This document shows, in pieces, positions 21,558 to 29,226 of a stretch of DNA of 64,000 bases (the stretch's first letter is position 1; every line of letters starts with the position of its first letter). The notes beneath the pieces are model-generated. The model was not told the origin of the DNA. It ran no database searches and worked only from the letters and a program-made list of their open reading frames with translations. The DNA lies in NCBI GenBank assembly GCA_019058315.1, contig JAHPZH010000002.1, positions 640,001 to 704,000 of the forward strand. The letters run 5' to 3'. This DNA is from Candidatus Helarchaeota archaeon (lineage in GTDB: Archaea > Asgardarchaeota > Lokiarchaeia > Helarchaeales > RDOG01). Made by a program: the position numbers and the translations under genes.

Positions 21558-22139
21558 CTAATCTTTTATTTGCAATCCACAATTGATACAAAATTTAGAG
21601 TCATTAGGCATCATAAAATTGCATCTAGGACATTCATTTGAGGAATTCTCCTCAATTTGATCTTGGTTTTTTAAAATGTTTTGAAATTCCCATAAATCGA
21701 GTTCTTTCTTACAATTCGGACAATTTGCTTTAGTTTTTAACCATTCAAGAAATTCTCCTAAATGATAAGGTGCACTACAGAAAGGACAAAATACAAGATT
21801 TTCCCCACTTACTCGTCTCTTGCAAATAATGCATTTTGGTAACTCATTTCCACAAGATGTACACCTAACTCTATAACTTGAGTTATTCTGACCACAATTA
21901 GGGCATATTATTTCTTCAGAAGCAATCACTAAATCCTTATCCATATGAACTTTAGAATATATTTTTTTTTCGGGGATATCTGAGTTGAAACGCTTCTTAT
22001 ATTGTTCTATAATACCTAACCTTTGTAATTCTGCATCAGCTTCTCTATAACTTCTCCAACCATAGCCCCAACGAAAAATTTTATATAAAGCTTTTCTTTT
22101 TTTCTCTAAAATACGTATTATTTCATCTTTTTTACTCAA
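21558..22139 (-). CDS. Zinc-ribbon plus RING-like finger protein
   Basis: CPNC..CTSC ribbon, RING-like CIIC-x12-CPFC-x4-H-x2-E-x3-W-x6-CPNC, and C-terminal CPRC..CINC ribbon. Confidence 0.75.
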   Translation of the reverse strand: MSKKDEIIRILEKKRKALYKIFRWGYGWRSYREADAELQRLGIIEQYKKRFNSDIPEKKIYSKVHMDKDLVIASEEIICPNCGQNNSSYRVRCTSCGNELPKCIICKRRVSGENLVFCPFCSAPYHLGEFLEWLKTKANCPNCKKELDLWEFQNILKNQDQIEENSSNECPRCNFMMPNDSKFCINCGLQIKD

Positions 22140-22308
22140 GAGATTAACCCCAACATTTCAAACTAATCATTATCATAAAAACCAATTAATTTAAAATTAT
22201 GTGATTGGGAAATTTTAAATTATAAAACATATCGTTAAATTGGTCTTTAAGAAATTTAATTAAATCTGCTTAAAAATAGAAAAAATAATAGAAAAAAAGA
22301 GGGAAAAT

Positions 22309-23337
<1,029 letters not shown>

Positions 23338-23765
23338 CTAACTATATTTTTTACCGAAATTATAAAGAATTTTCATTTTTTATTTAAAATTAAAAAATTC
23401 ATTTACGGTAATTGTAATAGTTCATAGATTTGAATGGTTATTTAATTTTTCCTAGCCAATTTGCTATTCAAATTTTAAATTAGGTAAAAGATTTTCTAAT
23501 TGGGACCTAAAATTAATAATAATGATTAATAATCGATAAAGAAAAATAAATTAAACGTTAATAATGCAAATTTATAGTATCTTTACCAGAAATCTATTAT
23601 AATTTCATTTCTATTCATACGAATTATAGTTTTATCTTCAAATAAAATTTAAATTGATCATCTGATAATGTAAATTCACTAAATAGATTAGGTTTAAATA
23701 AAAAATAACTTTATGTTTCTTGAATAAAAGCTCAATAGGAGTTGAATAACAGGATTTAGATAAAA

Positions 23766-25709
23766 ATGAGTGAAGAACCACGCATTGGAGTTTTTATTTG
23801 TCGTTGAGGCAAGAATATTGCTAGCGTAGTTGACGTAGAAGGTTTGGTCGAATATTCAAGCGATTTACCTTGTGTTAAATGCTCAGATCAAAACATAGCA
23901 CTATGTTCAGAACCTGGCGCAGAATTTATTAAAGAATGTATTGAAGAACATGACTTAAACCGTGTTATAGTAGCTGCTTGCACTCCATTAACTCACCAAC
24001 CAGTGTTCCATGCAGTTTTAGAGGAAGCTAATCTTCCTTCAAGAATGCTTGAATTCTCAAATTTAAGAGAACAAGTATCATTTGTCCATGCGGAAGATAA
24101 AGAAAAATCATTAGATCAAGCAAAAGACATTATACGAGGAGCTGTCGGAAGAGCACAACTACTTGAAGCAGTCCCACGAAAAGTGGTAGACGTTATACCT
24201 AAATGTGCTATTATCGGTGGCGGTATTGCAGGGATGACAGCAGCTTTAGAATTGGCTGATAAAGGCTTTAAAGTTTACTTAATTGAAAAAACGCCCTCAC
24301 TAGGGGGAAATATGGCAAAATTAGATAGAATCTTCCCTACTGATGAATGTTGTATTTGAATCTTGGGACCATTAATGCTTGAAGTTAATCGCAATTCAAA
24401 TATTGAAGTAATGGCATATTCAGAAGTGACTAAAGTTGATGGCTTTGTAGGTAATTTCAAGGTCCATGTGACTAAGAAACCTCGATATGTCTTACCCGAT
24501 GTTTGCAATTCATGCGGTGCTTGTGTAGATGTCTGTCCTATATATATACCAAACGAATTTAACTTTGGATTCTCACCAAAAAAAGCTATCGACATTCTAT
24601 TTCCACAAGCTGTTCCAGCAGTATATACAATTGAAGAAGAAAACTGTGTTCGATGTTATGCATGTGTAAACTCGTGTGAAGTTCATGCAATTGATTTCGC
24701 CCAAGAACCTGAAGAAGTTGAATTGGATGTCGGAACAATCATTGTGTGCCCTGGCTGGGACATGTTTGAATCTGATAGATATGGATACGGAAAATATTGG
24801 AATGTAATTAACCAAATTCAACTGGAAAGAATTCTTTCCGCCAGTGGACCCACAGAAGGACATTTGTTACGAGTTTCTGATAATAAAGTCCCTAAAAAAG
24901 TATTAATGATCAACTGTGTCGGAGCAAGATCTGAAAAAGAAGGTGAACATACCTATTGTCCAGGTGTATGCTGCTTAGTGACCATAAAAAATGCTCAATT
25001 AATACTAAGTGAATACCCAGATACTGAAGTTATAGTCTCTTATCGAGATATTAGAACACCTGGTAAAAATTATGAAGAGTATTACCGTCGTGCTCGAGAA
25101 AAAGGAATAATCTTTATTAAAGGTATGGTTGGAGATATTGAAGAGGATCCAGTTACAAAGAACCTCATTTGTTACTTAGAGGATGAAGGAACGGGCCAAA
25201 ATCTTGAATATGAAGCAGATATGGTCGTTCTTTCTGCGGTACCTTATCCATCCAAAGGGGTGGATCAAATTGCAGATTTAATGAAACTTGAAAGAACCCC
25301 TGACGGATTTTTAAGGGAGTTTCATAATAGACTTGATCCAATTAGGACTAAAGTGCCCGGTGTTTTTATTGCAGGTTTTGCTCAAGCGCCTAAACCAGTA
25401 GATATGACTGTAAATCAAGGAAAAGGAGCTGCTTCAGCAGCGGCAACTTTGCTCGTTCAAGGAAAATACGAAATAGAACTTATTCGAGCACAATGTAACC
25501 ATGAAGTTTGTAGCCTATGTGGGAATTGTGTTGAAATTTGTCCTTATAATGCAGTAACAATCGAAAATGATAAAGTCATCGTTGACGAAATAGCATGCCA
25601 AGGATGTGGTGCATGTTCTACAGTCTGCAAAAATAATGCCATGACTTTGCGATACTTTAGAAATATTCAATATGAAGCAATGATAGAAGGAATATTACAG
25701 ATTATTTAA
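23766..25709 (+). CDS. hdrA: Heterodisulfide reductase subunit A, selenoprotein with two in-frame UGA codons (647 aa)
   Basis: ATG 23766 gives MSEEPRIGVFICR-UGA(23805)-GKNI. FPTDECCI-UGA(24357)-ILGP joins the two track ORFs in one frame. Both UGAs fall at conserved HdrA Cys positions; FAD motif GGGIAG and ferredoxin motifs are intact. Confidence 0.92.
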
Positions 25710-25720
25710 GAGGTATAAAA

Positions 25721-26155
25721 ATGAGCGAAGGATTTTTACCCAAAATTGCAGCATTCTTATGCTGGAAATGAGGCTATGGCGCATGTGATATGGCTGGAAC
25801 AATTCGTCGTCAGTATCCTGCAAGCTTGCGAACAATTTTAGTTCCTTGCACTGCTAGAGTAGACCCAGAATATATAATTCGATCATTCTGTAAAGGCGCT
25901 GATGGAGCTATCGTAGTCGGCTGATTAGAAGGCGATTGCGATTACGAAACCGGAAATCTATTAGCAAGACGCCAAGTGGAATATTTAAAATTATTATGTA
26001 AGACACTTGGACTTAACGAAGACAGAGTCGAAATGAATAATATGAGTTCAGCAGAAGGAGCAAAATTCGCTGATTTTGCTAGTGAAGTTACAGAAAATAT
26101 CCAAAAAATTGGACCAAACCCACTTAAAACTGCTAAAGCAAAAAAAATTGCTTAA
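25721..26155 (+). CDS. mvhD: MvhD/VhuD [2Fe-2S] subunit, selenoprotein with two in-frame UGA codons (144 aa; absent from the ORF track)
   Basis: MSEGFLPKIAAFLCWK-UGA(25769)-GYGACDMAG...VPCTARVD...GADGAIVVG-UGA(25922)-LEGDCDYETGN...SSAEGAKFA...IGPNPL; GAGGT Shine-Dalgarno sequence. Confidence 0.93.
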
Positions 26156-26160
26156 TTATA

Positions 26161-26233
26161 CTGCCTATAAAGATTGATCTTTGCAGTAAAAGTTGAGCTG
26201 CAAAGTGACTACTCTTGCAAAGAGTTTAGGCAG
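26161..26233 (+). promoter_or_regulatory. SECIS-like element (eukaryote-type kink-turn core) in the mvhD 3' UTR
   Basis: UGAU(26175-78), CUUUGCAG/CUGCAAAG 8-bp helix, A-rich loop UAAAAGUUGAG, then UGAC(26206-09). Outer helix CUGCCUA/UAGGCAG and side hairpin ACUCUU/AAGAGU. Confidence 0.8.
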
Positions 26234-26265
26234 AAATTCAATATTTATTTAAAAGAGGAATTTTA

Positions 26266-27414
26266 ATGGAAATTGGAGAAACCTATACGGTAAGACCTGA
26301 TGAGTCAGCTCTGATCAAACTATTTCAGATGCTATTAGAAGAAAAAGTTGTCGATTCTGTTTTAGGATTTGATATTAAGAAAAAAAGATATGATCTATCA
26401 CCTAAAGCTATTGAAAATCCAAAAGAATTAACTCTTCTTCCTCTTTCCCAATATCTTGCTTATAATTATGCTAGAATAAATTCATCATCAAAGTTTGTTC
26501 ATACGAAAATGAATCCTCGTAATAAGAAAATTGCACTTATTGCACGTCCATGTGACACCCGAGCATTTATTGAACTCTCTAAATTTAATCAATTAAAACT
26601 TGATAATCTTTTTATTATCTGTACTAATTGCACTGGTTCAATTTCTGCAGCCGATGTTCAAAAAGGTATTGAAAATTTAAAGTTAGATCCTGAAAATGTT
26701 GAGGCAGAGGAATTAGGAATTAATTCTATAAAAATACTAATAGCTGGGAAAATACAAGAGATTAAATTTTCTGATTCTATTAAACGATGGGATAATTGTA
26801 GCAGATGTCATAAAAGAGAAGGAAGTATTTGCGATATACAAGTAGATTTTTATCTCGATGGTACTAAAAAAGTTATAACCCTAACGATCATTTCTGAAAA
26901 AGGTAAAGAGATATTGGAAAAAGCTGTGTCTTCCAAAAAAATTCAATTAGACAAAACTACTGCTGCTGTTAAAAAAAGGAAGGAATTAATGGAAAAAATA
27001 GTTGCTCAAGCCACTGAATATAGGGAAAAATCTATTGCTGATTTTCAGAATTTATCTGATGAAGAAAAATTTGCTAAAATAGCTAAAGAATTTATAGAAC
27101 CCTGTCGAGTTTGTGGGCAATGTATTAATGCGTGTCCTGTCTGTTATTGTCCTACATGTGATGTGATGCGAAGAAGAAAGGAAAAGGAAGCCGGTTTTGA
27201 TGGAAGACTTTATTTACTAACTAAAATGGCTCATATGGGTGATATATGCATAGGATGCGGAAAATGCACAGTTGCATGTCCAGCAAAAATTCAAAGTGCA
27301 TTCTTCTATGATGTTTTAACTGATTATGTCAAACAAGCTTTTGGTTATGAACCTGGAAGATCAGCTGAAGAAATCTATCCCAGAACAATGAAGGCTATTA
27401 AGAAATCTAGATAA
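26266..27414 (+). CDS. Coenzyme F420 hydrogenase/formate dehydrogenase beta subunit (FrhB/FdhB)-like protein
   Basis: KIALIARPCDTRAFIEL, ICTNCTG, NCSRC, CRVCGQCINACPVCYCPTC and HMGDICIGCGKCTVACP. Confidence 0.85.
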   Translation: MEIGETYTVRPDESALIKLFQMLLEEKVVDSVLGFDIKKKRYDLSPKAIENPKELTLLPLSQYLAYNYARINSSSKFVHTKMNPRNKKIALIARPCDTRAFIELSKFNQLKLDNLFIICTNCTGSISAADVQKGIENLKLDPENVEAEELGINSIKILIAGKIQEIKFSDSIKRWDNCSRCHKREGSICDIQVDFYLDGTKKVITLTIISEKGKEILEKAVSSKKIQLDKTTAAVKKRKELMEKIVAQATEYREKSIADFQNLSDEEKFAKIAKEFIEPCRVCGQCINACPVCYCPTCDVMRRRKEKEAGFDGRLYLLTKMAHMGDICIGCGKCTVACPAKIQSAFFYDVLTDYVKQAFGYEPGRSAEEIYPRTMKAIKKSR

Positions 27415-27467
27415 TTTTTTAATTTTTAATAATTCATTTTTTTAAAGTCTTATTTTAGGAATAAACC

Positions 27468-28961
27468 TTAATTTTCTTCAGAGGGTTTTTTCGAAGATCC
27501 AATCCTTTTTGTAAGTTCTTCTCTATCCAATACACTTTTTCTTTTAATGAAACTCGAAAAACTAATAGGACTTATAAAGGCAGTTAAAATTGCAGTAAAA
27601 ATCAAAATTTCTTGTAATACGGGTGCAATTAAGTAGTATTCTACACCGATACTGGCTGCAGCAATAAGTAAAGTTAACCGCGAAGATTGTAATATTCCAG
27701 AACCTATACCATCTTTTACTGTTTGATAGCGAGAGTGATAAATTACATTTGGAATTATTTTTACTAAGAATGCTACAGAAATTATCATAATTAATAGAAA
27801 AATTGATTCATTTGATGAAAATAATTCATTTACTTCAAATTTTGCACCTACTGTAATAAAAAATATAGGGATGGTAAAACCATAACCTATTGCATGTAAT
27901 TTTGAATGTAATTCTCGTGATTTTTCATGGGGACTAATAAGTGATATTATCATTCCAGCAAGAAATGCTCCCAAAATCATTTCTACACCTAATAACTCAG
28001 ATAATACAACAAATATTAAGAGTAGAAAAATTGCCCCAGTAATTTTCAGTTCATATGTTTCAGTATTCATTACAGCAAGTCTAGAATGCCATTTAGGAGA
28101 TTTTTTTAGAATTTTCATAATTTGAAATGCTGTAAATGCAATAATGAATATCATGGGTAATAAGAGTAACTCGAGTGCAATCCCCGTGGTGTGAATTATA
28201 ATAAATGTAGTAATAAGCATCATTGACGCAAAATCTGCAATAATTGCGGAAATAATAATTCTCAAACCATAATCAGATTCAGCAAGACCTAATTCAGATA
28301 AAGTTGGAAATACAACACCTACTGAAGTAGTTGTAAGAACTAATGCAAGATAAAAAAGATCAAAATAATGAGCATTAATAAGCCCTAATGGTTTTGGTGG
28401 ATCAAAAATTAATATTAGATTAAATAAATTATTTTGCATTTCACTAGCTAATACTTCTAATATAAATGTGAATAGAAAACATAAAGCTATTACAAAACCG
28501 AAAATGATCACACCTAAAAGAAGGGGTTTATGATCTAGATCTAATTCATCATAGGTTATACCTCTCATATGCCACCAATGATGATCTAAATCATCTTTAT
28601 GTCTTTCTTTATGTTTTTTAACTTCATCTTTTATGTCAGGATGAATTAAATGCTCAAAATCTATCTCCAATCCACTAGAGAACATTAAAAATGCAAATCC
28701 AAAAAAAGAAAGAAATTCTAACCATAAACTAGGACTTATTATATTAAATCCACTCTTTCCTAAAAGAATTCCGATAAGAATCTCGCCTACTACAACTGGT
28801 ATTTGAATAGTTTTAATTCGGGATGTTATTATTGGAATAATCAAGGCGCATAACATAATAATTAGAAGAGAGATTAGGGATCCAGCAGAAAATTCTTTTA
28901 ATTTCTCAACTTCTGTAAAATATGCTATTACAAATAAAAATAAATTTGGATCTTCTGGCAA
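27468..28961 (-). CDS. Cation:proton antiporter (CPA2/KefB-NapA family)
   Basis: IPVVVGEILIGILLG, FLMFSSGLEID, TTSVGVV, ADFAS, ILGAFLAG and IPIFFITVG. Confidence 0.88.
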   Translation of the reverse strand: MPEDPNLFLFVIAYFTEVEKLKEFSAGSLISLLIIMLCALIIPIITSRIKTIQIPVVVGEILIGILLGKSGFNIISPSLWLEFLSFFGFAFLMFSSGLEIDFEHLIHPDIKDEVKKHKERHKDDLDHHWWHMRGITYDELDLDHKPLLLGVIIFGFVIALCFLFTFILEVLASEMQNNLFNLILIFDPPKPLGLINAHYFDLFYLALVLTTTSVGVVFPTLSELGLAESDYGLRIIISAIIADFASMMLITTFIIIHTTGIALELLLLPMIFIIAFTAFQIMKILKKSPKWHSRLAVMNTETYELKITGAIFLLLIFVVLSELLGVEMILGAFLAGMIISLISPHEKSRELHSKLHAIGYGFTIPIFFITVGAKFEVNELFSSNESIFLLIMIISVAFLVKIIPNVIYHSRYQTVKDGIGSGILQSSRLTLLIAAASIGVEYYLIAPVLQEILIFTAILTAFISPISFSSFIKRKSVLDREELTKRIGSSKKPSEEN

Positions 28962-29226
28962 TTTTATCAGAACTATATAATTTTATCTAAACATCATTTT
29001 AATAGGAAATTTTAATTTAATCATTATTTAGTAATATGAAATCTAAATTCGCTATTCATATTTATTTTTAGTGTAAAGTATTAAAAAATTAATCTAATCT
29101 TGATTTTAACTTAAAGATTAAAATTATAATTCTATCACAACTATTTTATGGTTATTTAAGACCTAAAACTTCCTCTTTTTTTGATAAAATTATATTTTCT
29201 GAATTTTTAACATATTTTACATAAAC

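Follow-up and report, generated by a model that had tools for sequence, protein, structure and literature searches.

The gene pair and its in-frame UGA codons

Reading TGA as U in the window, the 64,000-nucleotide stretch of Candidatus Helarchaeota archaeon DNA analyzed here, we found continuous frames for hdrA and mvhD (vhuD), followed on the same strand by a SECIS element and an FrhB/FdhB-like Fe-S gene (Table 1). All read-through codons reported in the earlier note, beginning at 23805 and 24357 in hdrA and at 25769 and 25922 in mvhD, are placed correctly, as is the gap of 11 nt between the hdrA stop (TAA, 25707-25709) and the mvhD ATG at 25721. Under translation table 11, hdrA appears as two pieces (171 and 448 aa) and no piece of mvhD reaches 60 aa, which is why mvhD is absent from the standard ORF track, as the note had remarked. 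Standard gene calling here leaves hdrA truncated and loses mvhD. The ARAGORN search of the window found no tRNA, and no run of at least five T lies between the SECIS element and the ATG of the frhB-like gene.

Table 1. Coordinates of the genes, in-frame UGA codons, and SECIS parts in the window
Feature	Position	Strand	Remarks
hdrA (heterodisulfide reductase subunit A)	23766-25709	+	647 codons including 2 in-frame UGA; TAA stop
hdrA UGA codon 14 (U14)	23805-23807	+	C-R-U within the N-terminal CxC motif
hdrA UGA codon 198 (U198)	24357-24359	+	canonical HdrA Sec site (Sec/Cys197)
hdrA-mvhD spacer	25710-25720	+	11 nt; GAGGT inside, likely ribosome-binding site
mvhD/vhuD (delta subunit, F420-non-reducing hydrogenase, [2Fe-2S] protein)	25721-26155	+	144 codons including 2 in-frame UGA; TAA stop
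mvhD UGA codon 17 (U17)	25769-25771	+	aligns with X in 9sfi_K
mvhD UGA codon 68 (U68)	25922-25924	+	aligns with X in 9sfi_K
Complete SECIS, three-way junction	26161-26233	+	MFE fold; helix II and hairpin 2 inside the outer helix
SECIS outer helix	26161-26167 with 26227-26233	+	MFE fold
SECIS core hairpin	26174-26208	+	UUGA, 9-position helix II, 11-nt apical loop, GA
SECIS hairpin 2 (ACUCUU-GCA-AAGAGU)	26211-26225	+	3' strand, between GA and the outer helix
FrhB/FdhB-like Fe-S gene, downstream context	26266-27414	+	PF04432, 56 bits, and 4Fe-4S motifs

The identity of both proteins is supported by homology. HdrA matches PDB 9sfi_A over residues 4-645 (676 bits) and carries FAD and 4Fe-4S domains by Pfam, and MvhD matches the FlpD domain PF02662 (141 bits) and 9sfi_K (132 bits). 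When they are aligned with these homologs, a check proposed by the earlier note, HdrA U198 meets a residue entered as non-standard (X) in 9sfi_A, which belongs to the M. maripaludis Hdr-Vhu complex, MvhD U17 and U68 meet the two X residues of 9sfi_K, and HdrA U14 meets a conserved Cys of M. maripaludis HdrA. The TGA codons are also conserved among relatives. In 30 aligned hdrA loci, including that of the window, position 14 is TGA in 28 and position 198 in 29, position 12 is Cys throughout, and TGA is restricted to four Cys columns (positions 14, 47, 72, and 198); four paralogues have TGA in these four columns at once. Two in-frame TGAs are likewise present in the best mvhD match of each related genome searched (40/40). 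Judged from the aligned sequences, TGA occurs at the hdrA and mvhD sites far beyond chance.

The same TGAs thus recur in dozens of independent genomes, which argues against reading the genes as pseudogenes or the TGAs as assembly or sequencing errors, a reading that we regard as scarcely credible even for a metagenome-assembled genome with 6.6% estimated contamination. All four codons are also covered by contigs of three other sediment metagenome samples, derived from two other studies, and the differences listed for them touch neither a TGA nor base 26174 of the SECIS core; the TGT or TGC codons that the earlier note had named among its refuting observations are thus not among these listed differences. 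Moreover, the listed strain differences include 34 within hdrA, of which 28 fall at third and none at second codon positions (counted by hand). Since this third-position bias holds on either side of each TGA, purifying selection extends across the in-frame stops of hdrA.

The SECIS element 3' of mvhD

The SECIS-like hairpin that the earlier note had seen 3' of mvhD, about 2.4 kb from the first UGA, is borne out by both a covariance model and covariation. Its core begins 18 nt past the mvhD TAA and ~2.37 kb from the first hdrA UGA, and reads in order UUGA, UCUUUGCAG, UAAAAGUUGAG, CUGCAAAGU, and GA. Helix II consists of eight Watson-Crick pairs and a U-U at the basal position; the apical loop, UAAAAGUUGAG, is 11 nt long, starts A-rich, and ends in AG, and the GA lies 3' of the helix. 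The single-sequence fold of 26150-26270 has a z-score of only -1.4, and the support for the element is therefore comparative, not thermodynamic.

For this comparison we used 25 orthologous elements. A MAFFT alignment of the 83-nt extended elements was discarded, having misaligned two sequence subfamilies, and we therefore scored covariation on an alignment of the 41-nt core and examined the extended element by per-sequence folds. These folds contain the second hairpin in 25/25 elements and the outer helix in 22/25, with 15 different stems for hairpin 2, 13 different 5' strands for the outer helix, and GC in every hairpin-2 loop (AGC, GCA, and similar; 25/25). In the core, both-side changes are found at all nine helix II pairs. 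The helix II cells are paired in 92% of cases, a percentage that is partly built in because the elements were chosen with a pairing descriptor, compared to 34-45% after a shift of the 3' partners by 1-3 columns, and none of 500 shuffles reached 92%. The covariation score of helix II is 1.04, against 0.26 for the shuffles and 0.16-0.25 for the slid partners.

A covariance model built from the same 25 elements (R1), with the window's element in its training set, gave a single match above noise over 22000-29000 with filters off, at 26171-26211 (39.8 bits, E=5e-7; next best 12.2). Rfam, in contrast to R1, matched no SECIS family, either at the gathering threshold over the whole window or at E<=10 over 23300-27500; its only matches are chance-level SAM-II and U2. 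The Rfam models are blind to the short-stem SECIS of this locus.

The tetranucleotide at 26174-26177 departs from the other elements, being UUGA in the window and AUGA in all 24 other aligned orthologous elements; the UGA part is kept, and the AUGA of the lokiSECIS is not. We counted this core against the best explanation. The local peculiarities of the element, namely the UUGA core and the conserved extra 3' hairpin that produces a three-way junction, are minor.

Probable selenocysteine decoding and the proposed reach of one element

The Sec machinery, whose absence from the genome would have undone the earlier reading, is present. EFSec, SepSecS, and tRNA-Sec form a cluster at C5:124363-127232, with selB/EFSec at C5:124363 (287 bits, cut-off 242), SepSecS at C5:125922 (400 bits), and tRNA-SeC(tca) at C5:127141-127232 by ARAGORN (Rfam RF01852, 63.5 bits, gathering score 47). 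A KTI12/PSTK family gene lies at C5:433187 (116 bits; PSTK and Kti12 are not told apart by this family), and selD lies at C11:696903 (235 bits) with one in-frame TGA, indicating a Sec-containing SelD. Elsewhere in the genome TGA is an ordinary stop, ending 15% of the open frames of at least 300 codons, and a global reassignment of TGA is therefore ruled out.

These results bear on whether the UGAs are instead read in a selenium-free way, through insertion of Cys or Trp or through near-cognate suppression, or simply terminate translation to give shorter products. Gene callers do return pieces of 171 and 448 aa, but all UGAs lie in conserved Cys or known Sec columns, the genome's Sec machinery is complete and the SECIS covaries, TGA is a normal stop elsewhere, and a truncated HdrA would part its N-terminal domain from its FAD domain. 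We consider decoding without selenium or termination very improbable. Under selenocysteine decoding, Sec-tRNA(Sec) and EFSec would decode all four in-frame UGAs.

Whether one SECIS serves all of them depends on the region around hdrA, in or upstream of which a second SECIS would, according to the earlier note, overturn the single-SECIS claim. None was detected there by R1 over 22000-29000 with filters off or, on the + strand from 23300 to the SECIS, by two progressively looser descriptor scans; the first descriptor was too loose (202 matches), and its strict 9/11/GA subset was followed up. RNAalifold on 30 orthologues predicts an open chain with no conserved structure after both hdrA UGAs, which rules out a bacterial-type SECIS at these places, and the hdrA-mvhD spacer is too short to hold an element. 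Genome-wide, R1 scored 150 of ~16,700 candidates, which is no census of SECIS elements. The negative result of R1 near hdrA is meaningful, because the model does find hdrA-proximal elements in other genomes: G004 has a SECIS directly after hdrA (contig C45), and in G002 (contig C167) a spacer of ~125 nt between hdrA and mvhD contains a complete SECIS, with another after mvhD. These two pairs share with the window the gene order, the Sec positions (14 and 198 in HdrA and two in MvhD), and the Y-shaped element but differ from it in the extra SECIS after hdrA, where the window has its short spacer and one element.

The same relatives lend some weight to the alternative that the UGAs are Sec codons but those of hdrA are served by a second, undetected element, in which case the single-SECIS claim alone would be wrong. 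Such an element could be a SECIS of another type in the 424-nt 5' region, lie inside the coding sequence, or act in trans. In the same genome as the window, a paralogous pair on contig C11 has its own hdrA element with an aberrant AAAU...AAAU core, which would go unscored by R1 and by the descriptors, and the selD SECIS is of a different, longer form. One shared SECIS is thus not obligatory, since another family's genomes and the C11 pair have a separate hdrA element, and it is not universal among close relatives. Set against this are the empty searches described above, the spacer without an element, the lack of conserved structure in the orthologues, and the agreement of two surveys on a single SECIS (PMC4989117, PMC11227280), and we judge a second element unlikely.

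Thus, we conclude that the four UGAs very probably encode Sec in intact hdrA and mvhD/vhuD of a Sec-decoding, Loki-type Asgard archaeon and are served by the single SECIS after mvhD. In this mechanism hdrA and mvhD would share one transcript, probably including the frhB-like gene, and one eukaryote-like SECIS of the kink-turn type would direct decoding at distances from ~0.25 to 2.4 kb, so that the mvhD-proximal element would also serve hdrA across the cistron boundary. Consistent with the prediction of the published model, the stop of hdrA is TAA and not TGA. The earlier proposal that one SECIS recodes four UGAs over two cistrons is therefore supported as a probable reading; its implied novelty is not, as a shared SECIS had already been described (PMC4989117).

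Relation to known systems

Both the shared SECIS and the extra HdrA Sec site, which the earlier note had implied to be new, were published in 2016 for Lokiarchaeota, with multi-Sec HdrA, a HdrA-VhuD tandem, and one shared lokiSECIS (Mariotti et al. 2016, PMC4989117), and the lokiSECIS picture was extended to 227 Sec-using Asgard genomes in 2024 (Huang et al. 2024, PMC11227280). The window therefore adds an instance and not a concept; it is a clean, well-assembled case of one 3' SECIS that would serve several UGAs, the farthest of them more than 2 kb away and in the preceding cistron. As in Lokiarchaeota, hdrA has a stop other than UGA and is followed on the same strand, after a very short spacer, by vhuD, the multi-Sec HdrA includes the canonical site near position 200 that always accompanies the extra ones, and VhuD contains two Sec. 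The window's element also resembles the lokiSECIS in being the sole element, just 3' of vhuD, and in its 9-bp stem, 11-nt loop with an A-rich start and AG end, and GA. It differs in the basal U-U of helix II and in its core, since the lokiSECIS tetranucleotide is "always AUGA" according to the 2016 paper (PMC4989117), the string UUGA is absent from the main text of the 2024 paper (PMC11227280), and the core variants in the surveys are [A/G]UGA (PMC4989117, PMC11227280); a strict AUGA/GUGA descriptor would therefore miss it. A further difference is that the lokiSECIS is terminal, whereas the frhB-like gene starts 32 nt after the window's outer helix, so that this SECIS is probably intercistronic if the two are co-transcribed.

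The HdrA and VhuD of M. maripaludis in the Hdr-Vhu-Fwd complex (PDB 9sfi) are orthologous, with X residues at U198, U17, and U68, the first of which is named Sec197 in the structure paper (PMC13518236). In M. maripaludis HdrA a Cys stands where the window's protein has U14, and no hydrogenase or hdrBC genes directly adjoin the pair in the window. The SECIS elements of Methanococcales are of the archaeal GAA_A-bulge type and not of the kink-turn type (PMC11227280).

The role of the Sec residues in Fe-S clusters was claimed by the earlier note for all four UGAs. It is documented for U198, as Cys197 of HdrA is a ligand of the N-terminal [4Fe-4S] of the partner subunit, which is bound by N-terminal domain Cys together with this residue (PMC9012536); U14, U17, and U68 are supported as conserved Cys positions only. 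The 2026 cryo-EM work places Sec197 in a Cys-Sec link instead (PMC13518236), and the 2016 description, which predates the structure, calls the HdrA Sec positions non-ligands of clusters (PMC4989117). We tentatively raise the possibility, which we hold to be rather doubtful, that positions 14, 47, 72, and 198 of Asgard HdrA are the four ligands of one N-terminal [4Fe-4S] cluster. If so, the N-terminal clusters of the window's HdrA dimer would have two selenolate (U14 and U198') and two thiolate ligands, and some relatives would have a cluster ligated wholly by selenocysteine. Nature would then use a Se-ligated Fe-S cluster to tune the low-potential branch in flavin-based electron bifurcation.

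Compared to eukaryotic type I SECIS elements, the element of the window has the same UGA...GA kink-turn core at the base of helix II and unpaired A's opening the apical loop but a shorter helix II, and Rfam SECIS models do not match it at E<=10. No homologue of SBP2 turned up in Lokiarchaeota in the published surveys (PMC4989117). As in the eukaryotic multi-UGA mRNAs of SelP and SelL, the element would act from the 3' side at a distance and serve several UGAs. For action across two cistrons we know of no eukaryotic counterpart. The kink-turn core akin to that of eukaryotic SECIS elements bears on the origin of the eukaryotic Sec system.

The hdrA-mvhD gene pair and evidence for Sec decoding

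Under translation table 11, the region 23766-26155 gives just fragments, the plus-strand ORFs 23844-24359, 24363-25709, 25790-25924, and 25976-26155, which merge into two frames, hdrA and mvhD (vhuD), once TGA is read as U. An 11-nt spacer containing GAGGT lies between the hdrA TAA and the mvhD ATG. On this re-reading, the coordinates given in an earlier note are all correct. HdrA aligns over its full length with solved HdrA chains (9sfi_A, 676 bits; 5odc_A, 645 bits) and has the expected FAD and 4Fe-4S domains, and MvhD matches PF02662 (141 bits) and the VhuD chain 9sfi_K (132 bits). PDB entry 9sfi is the match for the Methanococcus maripaludis Hdr-Vhu-Fwd assembly of PMC13518236, in which Sec197 of HdrA is named. 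In the alignment, the X residues of the deposited 9sfi chains coincide exactly with U198 of HdrA and U17 and U68 of MvhD, and the U14 column of HdrA is the second Cys of the N-terminal CxC motif.

Features of the hdrA-mvhD locus and small TGA-containing ORFs of the same genome
Feature	Position	Strand	Details
hdrA	23766-25709	+	647 codons with TGA as U; U14 at 23805, U198 at 24357; stop TAA
mvhD/VhuD	25721-26155	+	144 codons with TGA as U; U17 at 25769, U68 at 25922
SECIS outer helix	26161-26167 paired with 26227-26233		From fold
SECIS core hairpin	26174-26208		UUGA, UCUUUGCAG, UAAAAGUUGAG, CUGCAAAGU, GA; 18 nt past mvhD stop
SECIS second hairpin (hairpin 2)	26211-26225		On 3' strand
FrhB/FdhB-like Fe-S protein gene	26266-27414		Next gene after mvhD
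Small TGA-containing ORF	L057:1117-1488 (contig C3)		
Small TGA-containing ORF	L058:1069-1491 (contig C5)		
Small TGA-containing ORF	C2:186036	-	
Small TGA-containing ORF	C10:42156	-	

The earlier note took the four UGAs as Sec codons, and the genome containing the window (5.79 Mb, 12 contigs, ~30% GC) does encode Sec machinery, with an EFSec-SepSecS-tRNA-Sec cluster at C5:124363-127232, a PSTK/KTI12-family gene, and a SelD gene with one in-frame TGA. Global recoding of TGA is rejected, since TGA terminates 15% of the open frames of at least 300 codons in this genome. Two in-frame TGAs are present in the best mvhD match of all 40 related genomes searched. Among 30 aligned hdrA loci, the window's included, position 198 is TGA in 29 and position 14 in 28, and a few also have TGA at Cys columns 47 and 72. 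All four codons are also spanned, at 90-99% identity, by contigs of three further sediment metagenomes from two other studies, and among the differences listed, none hits a TGA. Of the 34 differences listed for hdrA (counted by hand), 28 are third-position changes and none is a second-position change, indicating purifying selection on the frame with TGA read through, upstream and downstream of each UGA. The pseudogene, assembly-error, and termination readings are effectively excluded.

A single SECIS past mvhD

The note further inferred that one SECIS, 3' of mvhD, serves both genes. A covariance model built from 25 orthologous SECIS elements (R1), run over 22000-29000 on both strands with filters off, returned one match, at 26171-26211, whose 39.8 bits are partly by construction because the window's element is in the training set; the telling point is that this interval holds no other scoring site (runner-up, 12.2 bits). 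A loose descriptor run over the whole genome gave no other plus-strand match from the 5' intergenic region to the SECIS, and a still looser one over 23300-27500 gave none before it, with two weak matches downstream (27039 and 27366). For the 81 nt past UGA14 and past UGA198 in 30 orthologues, RNAalifold predicted an open chain, the same as in the rest of the gene, so there is no bacterial-type element, and the spacer between the genes is too short for a hairpin. These negatives and the short spacer, together with the ability of R1 to detect an hdrA-proximal SECIS where one is present (G002:C167 and G004:C45, from related genomes), give the single-SECIS reading all the support that sequence analysis can offer. 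At this locus, hdrA and mvhD are a genuine selenoprotein gene pair that was read correctly, with one SECIS that they probably share.

The element fits the published lokiSECIS definition (PMC4989117) in five respects, namely, a 9-bp stem, an 11-nt loop, an A-rich loop start, AG at the loop end, and GA past the stem, and departs from it in the first base of AUGA, which is U. An equivalent element was recovered 3' of mvhD in 25 of the 30 related loci. With the cores aligned, UUGA is found in the window's element alone (1/25), and all nine helix pairs vary on both sides. Paired cells make up 92% of the alignment, a fraction partly built in since the elements were chosen with a pairing descriptor, versus 34-45% with the 3' partners slid by 1-3 columns, and the observed covariation was reached in none of 500 shuffles. 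The descriptor does not build in the variety of compensating sequences seen at this orthologous site.

The whole element is predicted to form a three-way junction of the outer helix, helix II, and hairpin 2. When the 25 orthologous elements are folded independently, this Y shape recurs in about 21 of the MFE folds; by direct search, hairpin 2 is present in 25/25 and the outer helix in 22/25. The hairpin-2 stem comes in 15 different versions and the 5' strand of the outer helix in 13, and all hairpin-2 loops include GC (AGC, GCA, and similar). The junction (window 26161-26233, loci L025-L054) is a conserved property of the vhuD-type SECIS and no local oddity, and no mention of an extra 3' hairpin was found in the main texts of PMC4989117 and PMC11227280. 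The same 3' hairpin, with a GCA loop, is also found in the selD SECIS of this genome, and in its geometry the vhuD-type SECIS is like a kink-turn extended to a junction. The frhB-like gene starts 32 nt past the outer helix, and the sequence in between has no stretch of at least five T; the SECIS is probably intercistronic at this locus.

Other Sec loci in the genome and its relatives

A paralogous pair at C11:387880-390480 (-) of the same genome consists of hdrA (TGA at 14, 72, and 198) and mvhD (two TGAs), 146 nt apart, with two near-duplicate Y-shaped elements, one intergenic and one past mvhD. Both have AAAU...AAAU at the helix II base, not AUGA...GA, and so lack a GA/GA quartet; the two copies have different helix II sequences, with compensating changes, and the same hairpin 2. 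Either the SECIS core of this pair is non-canonical or its genes are decaying. At C3:41518-43946 (-), the order is reversed, with a Cys-type mvhD upstream of a Sec-containing hdrA (two TGAs) and a lokiSECIS (38.7 bits) directly 3' of hdrA, its AUGA beginning just after the stop. At C5:1207637 (+), a VhuU-like short ORF (NFDCULSCAAH) follows a vhuA-like gene and has as its stop codon the UGA of a GUGA SECIS core, an arrangement that has been described for Loki VhuU.1. Two genomes of another family of the same order, G002 and G004, have a complete lokiSECIS right after hdrA (L064:2155-2196 and L063:272-314) besides the one past mvhD; thus, the "always one shared SECIS" rule has exceptions.

The genome also has small ORFs (~90-140 aa) with an in-frame TGA, whose ends lie 13-19 nt upstream of a strict lokiSECIS match. 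One gives a weak, sub-threshold match to PF01521 (HesB/IscA-like Fe-S biogenesis; E=0.005), and all fall outside the seven selenoprotein families that Huang et al. 2024 (PMC11227280) list for Asgard archaea. These ORFs may encode Asgard selenoproteins not reported so far.

Fe-S ligands and comparison with published work

The proposal that all four Sec residues replace Fe-S ligands is documented only in part, for the U198 column, as Cys197 of HdrA ligates the partner's N-terminal [4Fe-4S] cluster (PMC9012536). A 2026 cryo-EM study places Sec197 instead in a Cys-Sec link between the N-terminal cluster and FAD (PMC13518236). Among the 30 aligned loci, hdrA TGA is limited to positions 14, 47, 72, and 198; four HdrA paralogues (L091-L094, in G034, G031, G019, and G022) have TGA at all four together, and Cys12 is never replaced, these paralogues included. 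This pattern is consistent with the four ligands of the N-terminal [4Fe-4S] cluster. Another paralogue, L089, has an additional TGA at 247, the first Cys of an inserted ferredoxin motif. The most novel of the possible readings of the locus, that of the ligand pattern, concerns chemistry, not recoding.

The N-terminal Sec site of HdrA is, in kind, among the extra positions already published. A selenoprotein gene pair with one SECIS is a phenomenon already known. Mariotti et al. 2016 (PMC4989117) described Lokiarchaeota HdrA and VhuD as invariably in tandem with a very short spacer and "Only a single lokiSECIS ... downstream of the second gene", found that UGA is never the HdrA stop, and concluded that one lokiSECIS supports up to six UGAs over ~2 kb of a polycistronic mRNA; Huang et al. 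2024 (PMC11227280) extended this to 227 Sec-using Asgard genomes. The shared-SECIS inference is therefore correct yet a re-derivation of published work. The core is "always AUGA" in the former study and of the types AUGA_GA, AUGA_AA, and GUGA_GA in the latter, the string UUGA being absent from its main text. The window has the same tandem order, short spacer, and single SECIS 3' of the second gene as the Lokiarchaeota pairs, with a SECIS core of UUGA in place of AUGA.
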